Source of the DNA: a virus
Lineage: Duplodnaviria; Heunggongvirae; Uroviricota; Caudoviricetes
DNA length: 7,929 nt
Reading direction: 5' to 3' (one strand)
IMG/VR virus record: IMGVR_UViG_2690316273_000016
Below, piece after piece: positions 1,639 through 7,054 of the stretch; the stretch's first letter is position 1, and each line of letters starts with the position of its first letter. Under the pieces are notes generated by a model. It searched no databases, was not told the DNA's origin, and saw only the letters and a list, made by a program, of their open reading frames with translations. Made by a program: the position numbers and the translations under genes.

Positions 1639-1884
1639 TCAGGCTGGCGGCGCACCGCCGCCACCCATCCACTAACACAGAGATCTAACCATGAATACTG
1701 GATATACGCCCGAACAGGGGCGGGGCTTCGTTCGTCCTGGTGAAACTAAAAAGCCATGTTATCGGGTATTTTCAGGCATAAAAAAAGCGGCCCCGATAAG
1801 GAACCGCCTTTCTGAACAATTAACCTGCTGCGAAAAAAATGGATCAGTGCAGGGGAATTATATCAACCGTGTGGTGAAGCGCCA

Positions 1885-1922
1885 CTATTGCCGGATAACA
1901 AGCAAAACAAAGGCGACCGCAA
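1885..1922 (-). terminator. Putative intrinsic terminator for leftward transcription
   Basis: Stem GGCGACC (1902-1908) / GGTCGCC (1916-1922), loop gcaaaag. On the minus strand it is followed by TTTGTTTTGCTTG (complement of 1885-1901). No T-tract follows on the plus strand. Confidence 0.4.
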
Positions 1923-1998
1923 AAGGGTCGCCAGTGGGAACAAGGGAAAACAAAAGCATCGCCAACAATGCCACATTTGCGGCTGGTGGGCAATGCAA

Positions 1999-2187
1999 TC
2001 AGTCTGGTTCAGTTCGTTGCCATACCTGCAATGAGCGCTTTTCCCTGTACTCTTTAAGGAATTGCTCAAGGGCAAAAGCACATGGCGCGAATCTTTCTGA
2101 TTCATGCTCTATCTTTCTGCGCCGTCTTTTCCGTGCCGGTGATAATGTTTTGGTCAATTCTTTATCGGTCATTGTGTTGTCCTGCAT
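1999..2187 (-). CDS. Hypothetical small basic protein (57-62 aa), possible second gene of the leftward transcript
   Basis: Minus-strand ORF from the track; translation (…TDKELTKTLSPARKRRRRKIEHESERFAPCAFALEQFLKEYREKR…) looks more protein-like than the overlapping plus frame. Internal ATG at 2172 has an AGGA 7 nt upstream; the first ATG at 2187 has no clear SD. Lies between the upstream regulator gene and the 1885-1922 terminator. Weak support. Confidence 0.3.
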   Translation of the reverse strand: MQDNTMTDKELTKTLSPARKRRRRKIEHESERFAPCAFALEQFLKEYREKRSLQVWQRTEPD

Positions 2188-2229
2188 AGCAATGCGCCGT
2201 AATACCTTACACCACGGCGCTGGTGATGG

Positions 2230-2409
2230 TTATTCCTGCTCTTTGGCCTTGCGACGCTGGCGGTATTCAACTTCTCGCTTTAATGCTGCTGTTACAAACT
2301 GCCCTGTACTTTCACCAGGCATTTTTACCGCCTCAACATTGTTCATAACTTCATGCGGAACCCTTGCCGCAACTGTTTGTGATTTTGCGTTTACTGCTTT
2401 TGTTGCCAT
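2230..2409 (-). CDS. Small putative DNA-binding regulator (59 aa), possibly ribbon-helix-helix; repressor-like
   Basis: Absent from the ORF track (below 60 aa). Hand translation of the minus strand from ATG (complement of 2407-2409) to TAA (complement of 2230-2232): MATKAVNAKSQTVAARVPHEVMNNVEAVKMPGESTGQFVTAALKREVEYRQRRKAKEQE. SD AAGGGG sits 8 nt upstream. Putative strand-helix-GxS/T turn-helix layout is reminiscent of Arc/CopG RHH proteins. Divergent from a promoter region with three palindromic operators. Confidence 0.5.
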   Translation of the reverse strand: MATKAVNAKSQTVAARVPHEVMNNVEAVKMPGESTGQFVTAALKREVEYRQRRKAKEQE

Positions 2410-2438
2410 GTTGTGTACCCCTTACAAAAAACAAATGC

Positions 2439-2511
2439 AGTATGCAGGAAAAAAAATAAGTGTTCAACACTTGACGTGTTTAACACCAGAGCTTAAATTG
2501 GTGTTCAACAC
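2439..2511. promoter_or_regulatory. Divergent promoter/operator switch: three palindromic operators GTGTT(C/T)AACAC over back-to-back sigma70-like promoters
   Basis: Operators at 2460-2470 (GTGTTCAACAC), 2476-2486 (GTGTTTAACAC) and 2501-2511 (GTGTTCAACAC, flanked g…c). Rightward promoter: -35 TTGACG 2471-2476, 17-bp spacer, -10 TAAATT 2494-2499. Leftward promoter on the minus strand: -35 TTGAAC (complement of 2462-2467), 17-bp spacer, -10 CATACT (complement of 2439-2444). Operators overlap both -35 elements and the rightward start site. Confidence 0.55.
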
Positions 2512-2608
2512 CTTGCTGATGCAAGGTGCAGAAACGACGAAACCCGGCAGTGCGCTAACACTAACCGGGCTTCTAACCACCAACGATAGAAAGCGTATCG
2601 AGGTAGCT

Positions 2609-2812
2609 ATGAGAAATTATACCAGACACCCGCAAGGGCGGGACTCGTACAACCTGAATAAATACATCTGGCGTTTTATCGCCCTGAGCACGGCACAACC
2701 GCGCGTGATTACCATTGAGGCCACCAGCGAACAGGAAGCGCGTCAGCAATCTCCTGATGGCTGCGTGATGGTATTCGCTGCCCGTATTCGCCAGGGGGAA
2801 CACCATGATTAA
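2609..2812 (+). CDS. Hypothetical small protein (67 aa), first gene of the rightward replication operon
   Basis: ATG at 2609 with GAGG 5-6 nt upstream; stop TAA 2810-2812 overlaps the next start (ATGATTAA). It is the only protein-like part of the 373-aa stop-free frame. An in-frame ATG at 2519 is possible but lacks an SD. Confidence 0.55.
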   Translation: MRNYTRHPQGRDSYNLNKYIWRFIALSTAQPRVITIEATSEQEARQQSPDGCVMVFAARIRQGEHHD

Positions 2813-3014
2813 CCTGTCACTTACCGACCTTAACCGCGTTCAGTTTCGTGAGAAATTTACCGGGCAGCTACTGGTCAATGTGGATAAAGGTCGCGTGGTG
2901 TGTAATTACCACCTGCCAGATGAAGCCATTGTCGCAACAAGGGAATCATTACAGGAACTCGCAGAACGTGCCGGAATGATTAATGCGAATATTCAGGGGG
3001 TGAGACATGCATAA
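2805..3014 (+). CDS. Hypothetical small protein (69 aa), paralog of the next gene
   Basis: ATG 2805 preceded by GGGG; stop overlaps the next start. Shares a motif block with the downstream ORF (TGQLLVNVDKGRVVCNYHL versus TGRVLVYLEKGRVKCQCRL). Confidence 0.65.
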   Translation: MINLSLTDLNRVQFREKFTGQLLVNVDKGRVVCNYHLPDEAIVATRESLQELAERAGMINANIQGVRHA

Positions 3015-3219
3015 TCATGAATCGCACTTACCTGTAGTGCTGAATGTGCCGTCAGATTATACGGGGCGCGTACTGGTGTATCTGGAAAAAGGCCGGGTTA
3101 AATGTCAGTGCCGTTTAATGGAAAACGAATTTATCAGCACTCTTGCGGGATTTTCTGAAATGCTCACTAAATCGGGTGTTAGTGCAGACCAGCTACGCGG
3201 GGGCGATTATGCGAAATAA
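3007..3219 (+). CDS. Hypothetical small protein (70 aa), paralog of the previous gene
   Basis: ATG 3007 six nt after GGGGG; overlaps the previous stop (ATGcaTAA). Shares the TG--LV---KGRV-C block with 2805-3014. Confidence 0.65.
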   Translation: MHNHESHLPVVLNVPSDYTGRVLVYLEKGRVKCQCRLMENEFISTLAGFSEMLTKSGVSADQLRGGDYAK

Positions 3220-3427
3220 ACATGATATTGAAGACCTGGCATTTGAAGCCCTGCACTCTGCGAAAAAAATCAGGGAAGTCGTCAATATGTGGATGAACAG
3301 CCTTAGCACCGATAAATCCGATAGCAGAGAAGAAATTCTTATTTCTTTGTTGTTAGACCTGGCAAATACACAGGTTTCTCTGACATCTGATATTGAGCTC
3401 GCCGCTAAAAAGCTGCCTCTGGAGTAA
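3209..3427 (+). CDS. Hypothetical small protein (72 aa)
   Basis: The track frame opens at 3143, but the ATG at 3209 follows a G-rich SD (gggggcgatt) and overlaps the upstream stop (TAA 3217-3219), matching the coupling seen elsewhere in this operon. Stop TAA 3425-3427. Confidence 0.5.
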   Translation: MRNKHDIEDLAFEALHSAKKIREVVNMWMNSLSTDKSDSREEILISLLLDLANTQVSLTSDIELAAKKLPLE

Positions 3428-3433
3428 AAAAAC

Positions 3434-3721
3434 ATGAAAAAGAAAAATTCTGGCTTTACTGCCAGCGGCCCCGCTCGGCCTGAAATCCGCCCCGGCGATA
3501 TTTTCCGGGATAACTATGGCGGCACGGTAACGATAAAAGGCGTGGCAGAACGGCGCATCACTTACCGCCGTGATGGCTACGAATATGACTGCGTGATGCC
3601 TGTTTATCAGTTCCGGCGTGATTTCACGCTGGTGGGCCATCGTAAAGCCGTAAATCAGAAACGTGCAGCAAGTCATATCCGCAAAATTCGTGAAATGCTG
3701 GTCGCAGGGGGTAAAAAATGA
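3434..3721 (+). CDS. Hypothetical basic protein (95 aa)
   Basis: ATG 3434 with GGAG 9 nt upstream; stop TGA 3719-3721 overlaps the primase ATG at 3718 (ATGA). Protein-like composition, basic C-terminus. Confidence 0.6.
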   Translation: MKKKNSGFTASGPARPEIRPGDIFRDNYGGTVTIKGVAERRITYRRDGYEYDCVMPVYQFRRDFTLVGHRKAVNQKRAASHIRKIREMLVAGGKK

Positions 3722-5532
3722 AACTGGCACCGAACGTAAAACAGCAGTCACGCGGCATAAAACACAAAGAAACAGAAGTCATTATTTTTGCGGGTAGTGA
3801 TGCCTGGTCACACGCAAAACAATGGCAGGAACATGACGCGCGTATGGCCGGAGATAATGAGCCTCCTGTGTGGCTTGGGGAGCAGCAGTTATCCGAACTG
3901 GATAAGCTGCAAATTGTGCCGGAAGGCAGAAAATCCGTGCGCATATTCAGGGCCGGATATCTTGCGCCAGTAATGATAAAGGCGATTGGTCAGAAGCTGG
4001 CGGCGGCAGGCGTACAGGATGCAAATTTTTATCCTGAGGGTATGCACGGTCAGGAGGTGCAGAACTGGCGCGGATATCTGGCCCGTGAGCGCCAGAATCT
4101 TTCTGATGGTCTGGTGATTCAGCTTCCTGTTAAGAAAAAAACAGAAGACAGCGCCGCACCACTGGCGCTTAACCAGATGGGAGCAAGCCAGCGCGGCGAA
4201 GTTCTCCTGGCACATTATGGCGGTGAACTGGCGATTCATGCCGACTCTGACACTGTTCACCATTACAACGGCGTTGTATGGGAGCCGATTCAGGATAAAG
4301 AGTTACAGCGTGCTATGGCGCAGATTTTCATTGATGCGGAGATCAGCTATTCGCAGAACGCCATTAAATCGGCGGTCGATACCATGAAGTTAAGTTTGCC
4401 TGTAATGGGGAATACAGCCCGTAACCTGATTGGATTCAGTAACGGGGTATTTGATACCAGAACAGGTAATTTTCGGGAGCATAACAAAAACGACTGGTTG
4501 TTAATTGCCAGTGAATTACCTTTCAGCCCACCAGCAGAGGGGGAAACGCTGGCAACACATGCGCCGAATTTCTGGAAGTGGTTACGCTGCTCGGTGGCAG
4601 AGAATGACCGCAAGACGGATCGCGTGCTGGCTGCATTATTCATGGTGCTGGCGAACCGGTACGACTGGCAGTTATTCATTGAGGTAACAGGTCCAGGGGG
4701 AAGTGGTAAAAGCGTGATGGCGGAGATTTGCACTATGCTGGCGGGTAAGGCCAACACAGTATCGGCAAGCATGAAGGCGCTGGAAGATGCAAGGGAACGC
4801 GCGTTAGTGGTTGGCTTTTCGCTGATTATCATGCCGGATATGACCCGCTACGCTGGTGATGGCGCAGGAATTAAGGCCATTACAGGCGGTGACAAGGTGG
4901 CAATCGACCCGAAGCATAAAGCCCCCTACTCAACACGCATTCAGGCGGTCGTGCTGGCGGTGAACAATAACGCCATGTCATTCAGTGACCGCAGCGGGGG
5001 GATCTCACGTCGTCGGGTGATATTCAATTTTTCGGAGGTTGTACCGGAGAACGAGCGCGACCCCATGCTGGCAGAAAAAATAGAAGGAGAGCTGGCGGTT
5101 GTGATTCGCCATCTGCTTACTCGTTTTTCTGACCAGGACGAAGCTAAACGCCTGCTGTATGAGCAGCAGAAATCAGAAGAAGCTCTGGTGATAAAACGCG
5201 AGGGCGATTCGCTGGTGGACTTCTGTGGCTATCTCATGTCGTCGGTAATGTGTGATGGTCTGTTAGTGGGTAATGCCGAAATTATTCCGTTCAGTCCGCG
5301 CAGGTATCTTTATCACGCCTATCTGGCATATATGAGGGCACACGGATTCGGTAAACCTGTAACACTGACGCGCTTCGGTAAAGATATGCCGGGGGCAATG
5401 GCGGAATATGGCAGGGAGTATATAAAACGGAAAACGAAGCACGGTTTGCGTTCAAATGTGACACTGACAGAGGATTCAGAAGACTGTATGCCATCATGTG
5501 CATCGGTCACAAATGACGACAGCAAAAATTAA
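3718..5532 (+). CDS. P4-family phage/plasmid primase C-terminal domain protein (D5-like SF3 NTPase/helicase); element replication initiator
   Basis: 604-aa ORF. Walker A GPGGSGKS (…FIEVTGPGGSGKSVMAEI…). Flanking blocks (NGVFDTRTGNFREH…, …ITGGDKVAIDPKHKAPYS…, …RRRVIFNFSEVVPENERDPMLAEKI…) match the conserved layout of P4-family primase C-terminal / D5_N-type proteins. SD GGGGG precedes the start. Confidence 0.88.
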   Translation: MKLAPNVKQQSRGIKHKETEVIIFAGSDAWSHAKQWQEHDARMAGDNEPPVWLGEQQLSELDKLQIVPEGRKSVRIFRAGYLAPVMIKAIGQKLAAAGVQDANFYPEGMHGQEVQNWRGYLARERQNLSDGLVIQLPVKKKTEDSAAPLALNQMGASQRGEVLLAHYGGELAIHADSDTVHHYNGVVWEPIQDKELQRAMAQIFIDAEISYSQNAIKSAVDTMKLSLPVMGNTARNLIGFSNGVFDTRTGNFREHNKNDWLLIASELPFSPPAEGETLATHAPNFWKWLRCSVAENDRKTDRVLAALFMVLANRYDWQLFIEVTGPGGSGKSVMAEICTMLAGKANTVSASMKALEDARERALVVGFSLIIMPDMTRYAGDGAGIKAITGGDKVAIDPKHKAPYSTRIQAVVLAVNNNAMSFSDRSGGISRRRVIFNFSEVVPENERDPMLAEKIEGELAVVIRHLLTRFSDQDEAKRLLYEQQKSEEALVIKREGDSLVDFCGYLMSSVMCDGLLVGNAEIIPFSPRRYLYHAYLAYMRAHGFGKPVTLTRFGKDMPGAMAEYGREYIKRKTKHGLRSNVTLTEDSEDCMPSCASVTNDDSKN

Positions 5533-5544
5533 ACTTATGGAATA

Positions 5545-5775
5545 ACTGTTCACCACTGTTCACCCTGTTATAAATATCTTTTATATCAGTACATTATAGG
5601 GTGAACAGTTATTTGTGAACTGTTCACCAAACTATTCACTGTTCACCTTTTTGATTATTTATTGAGCTTTAAGGGTGAACAGTGGTGAACAGTTGGTGAA
5701 TAGTTTTTGTGAAACTGTTCACCCCTTAACATTATGAATAAAAAGGGAAAATCTCAAAAGGTGAACAGGTGAAGG
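5545..5775. repeat. Iteron array in both orientations (CTGTTCACC / GGTGAACAG) with AT-rich spacers; putative replication origin
   Basis: Forward TGTTCACC at 5547-5554, 5557-5564 (two tandem 10-bp ACTGTTCACC units), 5621-5628, 5640-5647, 5716-5723, plus variant CTATTCACT at 5632-5640. Reverse GGTGAACAG at 5600-5608, 5674-5682, 5684-5692, 5760-5768, variant GGTGAATAG at 5695-5703, half-site GTGAAC at 5615-5620. Lies directly 3' of the primase gene. Confidence 0.6.
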
Positions 5776-5819: not shown

Positions 5820-6065
5820 GTGACAACGAAGCACGCAAAAAAACCACAATCTCACGCCCTTGATTTGACAGAACACTGGCTGAGGGTGGCGATAAAAATC
5901 ATCGACCGCAACGCGGGAGAAGGGTACGCAAAAGCACATCCCGAACTGATAAGCGCATTCATGACCACGGCGGCAGCAAACTTTGCCACGCTGACAGAAC
6001 GGGAGATTGCCGAAGCGGAACAGGTGACAACCATCAACGTTAAAACCGGAGAGCAGACAGCATGA
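5820..6065 (+). CDS. Hypothetical protein (81 aa), first gene of the accessory operon
   Basis: GTG start at 5820, GAGGT (5808-5812) 7 nt upstream; stop TGA 6063-6065 overlaps the ssb ATG at 6062 (ATGA). No family recognised by eye. Confidence 0.5.
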   Translation: MTTKHAKKPQSHALDLTEHWLRVAIKIIDRNAGEGYAKAHPELISAFMTTAAANFATLTEREIAEAEQVTTINVKTGEQTA

Positions 6066-6523: not shown

Positions 6524-7054
6524 ATGACAACGCTGACCATTAACCGGAAGCCGAAAGGCATTTACGGCACGCCGCAGAAAACGACGCAGGCGGCGCAAGA
6601 GCAGGATAAAACCACATCGGCGCATAAAGTGATACCCGGCAATCAGAACGCACAGCAGAAGCCCACAGGGGCGACACCGTGGCAGCATATGACCAAAAGG
6701 CAGCGCAAAAACCGCCGACGCGTTAACCGCCTCACTGAGATGTGGCCTGACTTATTCAGCCATAAAGCACCGAAGCCGCTTAAGGTGGGGATATTCGACG
6801 ACCTGATGCAGGATATCGCCGTCAGGGGGCTGGCATTCGGGCCGGGGGTATTACGTGCGACGCTGGCATCCTATGCGCAGTCTCCGCGCTATTACCGCGC
6901 CCTGATAGCTGGTGGCGCACGTTACGATCTGAAAGGCCAGCCATGTGGGGAAGTGACACCACAGGAACAGCAGGAGGCAGAAACACGGCTGATGGTGCTG
7001 AATGAGAAGCACAAGCGCCAGCGCCGGGCAGCAAAGGGGGATACATGCCAGTGA
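6524..7054 (+). CDS. FinO/ProQ-domain protein (putative RNA chaperone)
   Basis: 176 aa. Basic, low-complexity N-terminal half, then a block MWPDLFSHKAPKPLKVGIFDDLMQDIAVRGLAFGPGVLRATLASYAQSPRYYRALIAGGARYDLKGQPCGEVTPQEQQEAE that aligns by eye with the F-plasmid FinO core (WWPGLF…GIRDVLLEDVAQR…[40 protein letters not shown]). Stop overlaps the next ATG. Confidence 0.8.
   Translation: MTTLTINRKPKGIYGTPQKTTQAAQEQDKTTSAHKVIPGNQNAQQKPTGATPWQHMTKRQRKNRRRVNRLTEMWPDLFSHKAPKPLKVGIFDDLMQDIAVRGLAFGPGVLRATLASYAQSPRYYRALIAGGARYDLKGQPCGEVTPQEQQEAETRLMVLNEKHKRQRRAAKGDTCQ

Follow-up and report, generated by a model that had tools for sequence, protein, structure and literature searches.

A candidate ribbon-helix-helix repressor cassette and a predicted antisense RNA at the replication operon of an Escherichia coli phage satellite

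The question raised by this locus is how the replication operon of a phage satellite might be held silent. The sequence analyzed here, IMG/VR record IMGVR_UViG_2690316273_000016 (7,929 nt; the whole stretch is hereafter called the window), is, judging from sequence identity and gene content, the left end of a capsid-forming phage satellite of Escherichia coli of the phage-inducible chromosomal island (PICI) type. In such islands, AlpA is an activator that is needed and, when over-expressed, sufficient for induction (PMC6092414; bioRxiv 10.1101/2022.09.08.507074; 10.1101/2025.02.11.637232). A short intergenic region of the window separates a leftward gene encoding a 59-amino-acid (aa) protein from a rightward operon that runs from an icd-like gene to the primase gene. 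Our analysis of this region makes it likely that the icd-to-primase operon is silenced by two layers of control, a ribbon-helix-helix (RHH) repressor acting on operators and an antisense RNA acting on icd.

Palindromic sites, divergent promoters and the 59-aa protein

The first-pass annotation had placed the 11-bp palindrome GTGTTYAACAC three times within 52 bp, on the −35 sequence of a leftward promoter, on the −35 sequence and spacer of a rightward promoter and on the rightward start region. Exact matches starting at 2460, 2476 and 2501 were confirmed, and these are the only three in the window; their positions relative to both promoters were reproduced from the sequence and a promoter scan. 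The mean chance expectation for this motif was 0.01 matches, and three matches were reached in none of 200 dinucleotide-preserving shuffles. It is therefore apparent that chance is excluded. The leftward 59-aa open reading frame (ORF; 2230-2409, minus strand) and the rightward operon leading to the primase gene (3718-5532) were also found as described. The elements of the region are as follows.

2460-2470: putative operator O1, GTGTTCAACAC; overlaps the leftward −35 (TTGAAC) and abuts the left side of the rightward −35
2476-2486: putative operator O2, GTGTTTAACAC; its first base coincides with the final −35 base of the rightward promoter, and it occupies the spacer
2501-2511: putative operator O3, GTGTTCAACAC; begins 2 nt past the rightward −10 and spans the expected transcription start
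2471-2499, plus strand: promoter P_R; −35 TTGACG (2471-2476), 17-nt spacer, −10 TAAATT (2494-2499)
2439-2467, minus strand: putative promoter P_L; −35 TTGAAC (2467->2462, within O1), 17-nt spacer, −10 CATACT (2444->2439)
2230-2409, minus strand: gene of the 59-aa YlcI/YnfO-family protein, a predicted RHH repressor
2508-2527: hairpin CACCTTGC-TGAT-GCAAGGTG at the right of O3; candidate 5' stem-loop of the rightward mRNA

The start-to-start spacing is 16 bp between O1 and O2 and 25 bp between O2 and O3. O1 extends into a 15-bp palindrome, AAGTGTTCAACACTT (2458-2472), and O3 into a 13-bp palindrome, GGTGTTCAACACC (2500-2512). P_R was the sole promoter-like match when 2150-2900 was scanned with a σ70-like consensus, and its transcript would start at about 2506-2508. 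P_L, which agrees with the consensus at 8 of 12 positions and lies under the scan threshold, was read directly from the sequence as a putative leftward promoter whose −10 lies about 30 nt ahead of the 59-aa start codon; a CAGTAT(A) element is kept at the position of its −10 in almost all related loci. A hairpin at the position of 2508-2527 is likewise present in most related loci, and a strand asymmetry in it was looked for across the loci and not found. A degenerate copy of the palindrome at the alpA start codon (1450-1460) was considered as a further operator and dropped, since it is within chance expectation and is not a match with one mismatch or fewer.

The 59-aa protein matched the YlcI/YnfO family model NF041551 over residues 9-50 with 59.7 bits (E 2.1e-16), above the family cut-off of 30, and RefSeq names an identical protein as YlcI/YnfO family. 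Its 29 aligned homologues have an invariant N-terminal arm (MATKAVNAKS), hypervariable residues 11-15 followed by a conserved R-V-P, a helix, a G-E-S-T turn and a long second helix. No Pfam match was obtained with the protein at E <= 0.01, and the curated RHH family models were not reached, the 29 homologues giving faint and mixed Pfam matches at E <= 10 (including CB_ParB_C and PSK_trans_fac). A profile search of PDB sequences returned nothing meaningful, and Foldseek against the PDB returned nothing. What is expected of an RHH protein, namely short repeated sites in or beside its own promoter and a specificity that depends on the strand residues, was found in the comparative evidence given below, and the protein is a probable RHH dimer. 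No match to it was detected by tblastn in 50,697 deposited phage genomes; thus, the module in this version was not found in deposited phages. The family namesake, YlcI of E. coli K-12 (L031, 2752-3170; loci are denoted by L numbers), is encoded in the cryptic prophage DLP12, where the cos site and nohD follow directly downstream of it. It has an RHH-like pattern (NIRFP...GNFSAWV), and a comparable operator layout was not seen there; therefore, the family name is uninformative on function here.

About 30 loci from Escherichia, Salmonella, Klebsiella, Edwardsiella, Pectobacterium, Xenorhabdus, Yokenella, Dryocola and a metagenome were compared. In all MAT-type loci, the −35 sequence TTGAC(G/A) or TTGAAG overlaps by one base with an 11-12-bp site, GTG-N5/6-CAC, and the −10 sequence follows. 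A second copy of the site lies 22-25 bp beyond the first in most classes (35 bp in L023) and is inverted in some, and a third copy is located close to the leftward CAGTATA element, except in the class of the window, where it lies on the leftward −35. Across these loci, the central bases of the site vary with residues 11-15 of the protein. The pairs, residues first and site second, are listed below.

QT[VLI]AA: GTGTTYAACAC (E. coli, Edwardsiella, Pectobacterium)
[KR]KLEA: GTGGCTGACAC
QSLKS or QALKA: GTGGGCCACAC
QS[VL]TA: GTGTAAGACAC
QMTTV: GTGTATTTCAC
QLTTV: GTGTGTTTCAC
QALRA: GTGTAGACCAC
KRFDV: GTGTCCGACAC
KKIDV: GTGTCAGACAC
QKLQA: CTGGAATCCAG or GTGGATTCCAC
AQKKI: GTGTACCCCCAC

The related islands provide about ten specificity classes, with a dozen or more allelic protein/site pairs, and the same residues 11-15 go with the same sites even across genera. 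In L020 and L025, the repressor is 100% identical to that of the window and the sites are identical, whereas the identities of the other proteins are 31 and 61% (AlpA), 49 and 50% (Icd) and 36 and 65% (primase), respectively. O1 has the same position and sequence in L020, L025 and L033, all of which have the same repressor class. In contrast, both the repressor allele and the sites differ in L023 (Icd 97%, 62-aa ORF product 98% and primase 99% identical), L028 (AlpA 95% and Icd 92%) and L027 (AlpA 90% and primase 94%). The site sequence therefore follows the 59-aa protein, and not AlpA, Icd, the primase or the product of the 62-aa ORF that lies downstream of the repressor gene. When whole islands were scanned, each class motif (one mismatch or fewer) was confined to this intergenic region. 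In L021, the sole locus with a different arm (MERDHINNKS), two of the three sites are CTG...CAG. These data suggest that the invariant arm and R16 would read the outer GTG/CAC and that the five bases in the center would be recognized by residues 11-15.

Position 2508, just on the right side of O3, is often the exact point from which E. coli genomes are homologous to the window, as is expected of a swappable cassette. In L032, the same cassette is joined to a KilA-N gene without the icd leader, which indicates that it is an independent module.

Taken together, these comparisons strongly suggest that the palindromes are the binding sites of the 59-aa protein, which would bind them and repress both the icd-to-primase operon and its own gene. 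The repressor-controlled switch proposed in the first-pass annotation is strengthened in that the palindromes covary with the predicted DNA-reading residues of the 59-aa protein in about 30 loci and are positioned for repression and autoregulation. A bistable character of the switch, as in lysogeny, found no support here, and a second, Cro-like regulator is not evident.

The predicted antisense RNA over the icd start

The interval 2512-2608, which belonged to the region singled out in the first-pass annotation and was left uninterpreted there, is predicted to encode a conserved antisense RNA against icd. Its parts and its target are as follows.

2609-2812, plus strand: icd-like gene (67 aa), first of the rightward operon; 70.4 bits against NF033153 (cut-off 25); RefSeq annotation
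2528-2610, minus strand: predicted cis-antisense RNA of ~80 nt, covering the icd ribosome-binding site and start codon
2616-2624 (2624->2616), minus strand: putative antisense promoter, a perfect extended −10 (TGGTATAAT) within icd codons 3-6
2609->2574, minus strand: antisense hairpin 1, carrying the anti-Shine-Dalgarno sequence CUACCUC
After hairpin 1, minus strand: invariant linker GGUGGUUAG, GC-rich terminator hairpin (2573->2539) and U-rich tail

The RNA is predicted to start at 2608-2610, and TGGTATAAT or TGGTATGAT is kept in all loci with an MRN(Y/H)T-type icd. The antisense fold has a free energy of −36.5 kcal/mol (z = −4.8). When 24 distinct sequences were aligned, compensatory changes were found in 14 of the 18 pairs and 96.7% of the cells paired; these values were reached in none of 500 shuffles, and slid controls dropped to about 40%. 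The strand could be read from the same alignment. G-U cells numbered 36 on the minus strand (A-C on the plus strand) versus a single one the other way, and 412 of the 426 cells pair on the minus strand versus 377 on the plus strand. In addition, the minus-strand fold was the more stable one in 25 of the 25 loci folded (e.g., −35.8 versus −15.2 kcal/mol). The G-U asymmetry and the fold stability together argue that the structure was selected in the leftward transcript.

The Rfam model of SymR (RF01809; gathering score, 61 bits) matched this RNA at full length on the minus strand (2608->2536) with 32.8 bits, the E value being 0.003 in the window and 1.2e-4 in a 301-nt search. Matches at the same place and on the same strand were obtained in L005 (40.4 bits), L026 (34.8 bits) and L009 (32.1 bits), all under 61 bits. 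A covariance model built from the island RNAs (R1) scored 60-78 bits in loci outside its training set. In return, it picked up the annotated K-12 symR over its full length and on the correct strand, with 26.1 bits (E 3e-4). Furthermore, the blocks GTGCGCCAACAC and CTAATCAC of the K-12 symE leader are shared with GTGCGCTAACAC and CTAACCAC of the window. On the basis of these matches, the antisense RNA is read as a distant relative of SymR and not as a member by the Rfam criterion. The symE/symR pair of K-12 (L030, 1336-1412) has sequence blocks and an architecture in common with the icd leader of the island and its predicted antisense RNA, which raises the possibility that symER originated from a mobile-element module of this kind.

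The C4 and isrK models gave no match in the window at E <= 1, nor in 2400-2700 at E <= 10. In L027, isrK (66 bits) and C4 (77.6 bits) matches, both above the gathering scores, lie at 1992-2177 between the operator region and icd. Controls of the protein-operator, SymR-like and C4 types can therefore stack in one operon.

The island and its other features

At 99.4% identity, the window corresponds to the left end of a ~14-kb island located between allE and allC in E. coli AST240 (NZ_AP043633). The gene order of this island is int, an AlpA-type regulator, a pseudogene remnant and the leftward YlcI/YnfO gene, followed by rightward genes, which on the replication side are those for the Icd-like protein, two small ORFs, DUF4222, a D5-type primase, SSB and a ProQ/FinO-like protein, and on the structural side those for the major capsid, prohead protease, portal, connector, HNH, TerS and TerL. 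Pfam, NCBIfam and PHROGs were concordant on the integrase, AlpA, primase, Icd-like and YlcI/YnfO proteins. Capsid-forming PICIs (cf-PICIs) have been defined as elements of about 10-20 kb in which int, alpA and pri-rep share one direction and precede capsid-to-TerL genes of the element's own, tail and lysis genes being absent (bioRxiv 10.1101/2022.09.08.507074). The annotation of the NZ_AP043633 island contains this gene set. The remaining features of the two transcription units are as follows.

1999-2187, minus strand: 62-aa ORF (phrog_21027), between the repressor gene and the leftward terminator; no RefSeq annotation
1912-1932, minus strand: intrinsic terminator of the leftward transcript, GGCGACC-CTTTTGC-GGTCGCC followed by TTTGTTTTGC
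2805-5532, plus strand: rest of the rightward operon, comprising two phrog_340 paralogues, DUF4222 and a D5-type primase-helicase (3718-5532), the genes overlapping or closely spaced

The 62-aa ORF is probably part of the same leftward transcript as the repressor gene. Its product is basic, and homologues with 44-100% identity occur at the same place in L022, L023, L024, L027 and L028. The hairpin at 1912-1932 terminates the leftward strand only, and weak terminator-like matches alone were found on the plus strand from alpA to P_R. The two phrog_340 paralogues (2805-3014 and 3007-3219) are adjacent and overlapping and come right after icd.

Between the primase gene and the next ORF, 5541-5770 contains a dense array of ~10 copies of ACTGTTCACC in both orientations, including a perfect 23-nt inverted repeat (5544-5566 / 5672-5694). 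The array caused spurious microRNA-family matches in Rfam. Because the PICI origin has been placed downstream of pri (PMC10111431), this array is probably the replication origin of the island. Two further sets of repeats are candidate binding sites of the integrase arm or AlpA. One consists of five tandem 10-bp-phased repeats, (G/A)AACAA(C/T), between int and alpA (1119-1168), and the other of two phased GACACAA units just upstream of alpA (1369-1398), beside a promoter-like TTGCCA-17-CACAAT (1359-1387).

An open frame of 373 codons (1691-2812, plus strand) runs from after alpA, antisense to the repressor gene, through the operators and into icd in frame. RefSeq annotates 1691-2228 as a truncated pseudogene, and PGAP extends the icd ORF far upstream in sister loci; the frame may be due to chance plus antisense-frame bias. 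The ProQ/FinO-family protein encoded at 6524-7054 lies under the NCBIfam cut-offs for FinO and ProQ proper. In the sister island L003, an Rfam int-alpA RNA (RF02996) was found at 5893-5961 with a score that exceeds the gathering score (44.6 bits), and the window gave no match to it.

Alternative readings, possible mechanism and known systems

Three other roles for the palindromes or the 59-aa protein were weighed. The palindromes might be AlpA sites through which AlpA switches on the replication operon, as AlpA is required and, if over-expressed, sufficient for induction and activates downstream island genes (PMC6092414) and a degenerate copy of the palindrome lies at the alpA start codon. That copy is at chance level, however, and no copy with one mismatch or fewer occurs outside the intergenic region; the sites differ in L027 and L028, where AlpA is 90-95% identical to that of the window, and are identical in L020 and L025, where it is 31-61% identical; and the spacer and +1 are positions of a repressor, not of an activator. 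We regard this role as very improbable. It is slightly easier, though still improbable, to see the 59-aa protein as a mere autoregulating RHH protein of the antitoxin type that belongs to a leftward module with the 62-aa ORF, the sites then controlling this module and not the replication operon. Two of the three sites are on the rightward promoter, and this arrangement is conserved in all loci. Tblastn with the window proteins (E <= 0.001) recovered the 62-aa ORF from no more than five loci, all of E. coli. Moreover, L021, L026 and L028 have no annotated gene downstream of the repressor gene, and the 62-aa ORF product is 98-100% identical in L022 and L023 despite different operators. As for origin iterons, packaging sites or recombinase sites, the palindromes are short, repeated and near replication genes; nevertheless, they are locked to the promoter hexamers, they differ in L023 with a primase of 99% identity and are the same in L020 with one of 36%, and a separate iteron array lies downstream of the primase gene at 5541-5770, where the PICI origin is placed (PMC10111431). 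Such a role is scarcely credible.

The second layer has an alternative of its own, in which there is no antisense RNA and the hairpins at 2539-2609 belong to the leader of the rightward mRNA, where they would work as an attenuator, a protein-binding site or an immunity RNA of the C4/CI type. The plus strand folds too (−34.8 kcal/mol, z −3.6), immunity RNAs of such a type have been described in PICIs (PMC10111431), and L027 has sense-strand isrK and C4 matches above the gathering score in the same operon. On the other side, the 36 G-U pairs of the minus strand are A-C mismatches on the plus strand, which has one G-U pair, and the minus-strand fold is the more stable one in each of the 25 folded loci. 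It is also the minus strand that has the U-rich tail and the perfect extended −10 and that SymR and R1 both match, and the window has no C4 or isrK match. A function confined to the sense leader is thus unlikely.

Several observations weigh against two-layer control by the 59-aa protein and the antisense RNA. P_L is only a weak consensus match, and the additional site that other classes have at the leftward start point is missing from the window. The AlphaFold2 (AF2) monomer of the 59-aa protein contains no strand. A convincing antisense promoter is confined to the E. coli-type icd, the other type having a 4/6 hexamer that overlaps conserved codons, and the SymR score is about half the Rfam gathering score. 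In addition, over-expression of AlpA alone induces such islands, so that any repression must be overridable (PMC6092414; bioRxiv 10.1101/2025.02.11.637232). Because AlpA is required and, if over-expressed, sufficient, the repressor cannot be the sole gate.

From the sites, their positions and covariation and the structure and strand of the RNA, all of which come from sequence and comparison, we infer binding, repression, the start sites and the lifting of the block as follows. In the first layer, a dimer of the 59-aa protein on O2 (spacer) and O3 (+1) would block P_R and hence icd-to-primase transcription, and a dimer on O1 (−35 of P_L) would throttle its own synthesis by negative autoregulation. 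The repressor and operators would form an exchangeable specificity cassette, and the leftward unit would consist of the repressor gene, the 62-aa ORF and the strong terminator (1932->1912). In the second layer, the ~80-nt antisense RNA, extending from the icd start codon to a terminator roughly 20 nt short of O3, would pair with the icd ribosome-binding site and block the translation of transcripts that escape from P_R. Expression of the downstream genes would probably be lowered too, since the ORFs at 2805 and 3007 overlap icd and each other. Given that the plus strand carries no more than weak terminator-like matches from alpA to P_R, induction could plausibly occur by read-through from the AlpA-activated alpA promoter, which is convergent with the repressor gene; alternatively, the helper phage could supply an antirepressor. 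By analogy with FinO/FinP, the island ProQ/FinO-like protein might speculatively serve as a chaperone of the antisense RNA.

In the literature searched, whose coverage is incomplete, neither an RHH repressor nor operators nor an antisense RNA was found described for Gram-negative PICIs. A 2026 survey lists 'YlcI/YnfO, prophage-associated protein' as a cf-PICI accessory gene only (PMC13612085), and another describes a 'Bro zone' with C4/isrK immunity RNAs and no protein repressor (PMC10111431). The activator AlpA is the only regulator characterized in that literature. Together, the conserved and allelically diverse cassette, which sits directly on the promoter that would drive the replication operon, and the predicted antisense RNA make a concrete and cheaply testable candidate for the missing negative control. 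The dozen or so natural protein/site pairs are also material for studying a specificity change in a very small DNA-binding protein, and the antisense RNA suggests a possible source of the SymR RNA of E. coli. A wider scheme is tentative and, in our estimation, rather doubtful as a whole. According to this scheme, the YlcI/YnfO-type protein would be the master repressor of Gram-negative PICIs, its cassettes would define satellite immunity groups, induction would remove the repressor through AlpA read-through or a helper-phage protein, the SymR-like RNA would be a fail-safe against toxic Icd, and E. coli symE/symR would be a domesticated descendant.

Comparison with known systems gave likenesses, and none of them makes the window a member of a known system: it matches neither the RHH Pfam models nor the C4 model, and its SymR score lies below the threshold. 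With P1 immI (c4 RNA-icd-ant) and the P4 CI immunity RNA (C4, RF01695; isrK, RF01394), the window has in common an icd-like gene as the first of an RNA-controlled operon. Unlike those RNAs, which are processed from the sense strand, the predicted RNA of the window is cis-antisense, and a predicted protein repressor accompanies it. Stl proteins belong to the helix-turn-helix type, are large and are inactivated by helper-phage proteins. As with the master repressor Stl of the Staphylococcus aureus pathogenicity islands (SaPIs), which are Gram-positive PICIs, the repressor gene lies between int and the replication module, is divergent from the silenced operon and has many exchangeable alleles (PMC6092414); in contrast to Stl, the protein of the window is a 59-aa RHH-like one, and induction of such islands needs AlpA.

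In the copy-number control of plasmid pMV158, the RHH repressor CopG and the antisense RNA II act on repB. Double control of a replication operon by an RHH repressor and a translation-blocking antisense RNA is common to pMV158 and the scheme proposed for the window, whereas CopG is co-transcribed with repB and has a single pseudo-symmetric operator, the repressor of the window is divergent, and its antisense RNA targets icd, the first gene, rather than the initiator. The immI region of P22 contains the RHH repressors Mnt and Arc, the divergent promoters Pmnt and Pant and the sar antisense RNA. The window resembles it in having a small divergent RHH repressor (predicted), an operator overlapping both promoters and a predicted short antisense RNA that arises within the operon and covers a ribosome-binding site. 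It differs in that the 59-aa protein has no detectable homology to Mnt or Arc, a second, Arc-like repressor was not seen in the window, the operon consists of the icd-like and replication genes instead of an antirepressor, and three 11-bp sites take the place of one 17-21-bp operator.

SymE/SymR of K-12 (RF01809) shares with the predictions for the window a cis-antisense RNA of ~77-80 nt with two hairpins that starts at the start codon of its target, as well as a target promoter held by a repressor (LexA in the case of symE); the sequence GUGUUAGCGCAC + GGUUAG of the window corresponds to GUGUUGGCGCAC + GAUUAG of SymR. On the other hand, the target in the window is icd-like and not symE, the setting is a mobile satellite, and the putative repressor is an island-encoded RHH protein and not LexA. 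An RHH repressor on divergent promoters combined with an antisense RNA is a classical mechanism, and the advance is its placement in these elements. The parts are classical; the assembly is new for a satellite family whose negative control had not been identified.

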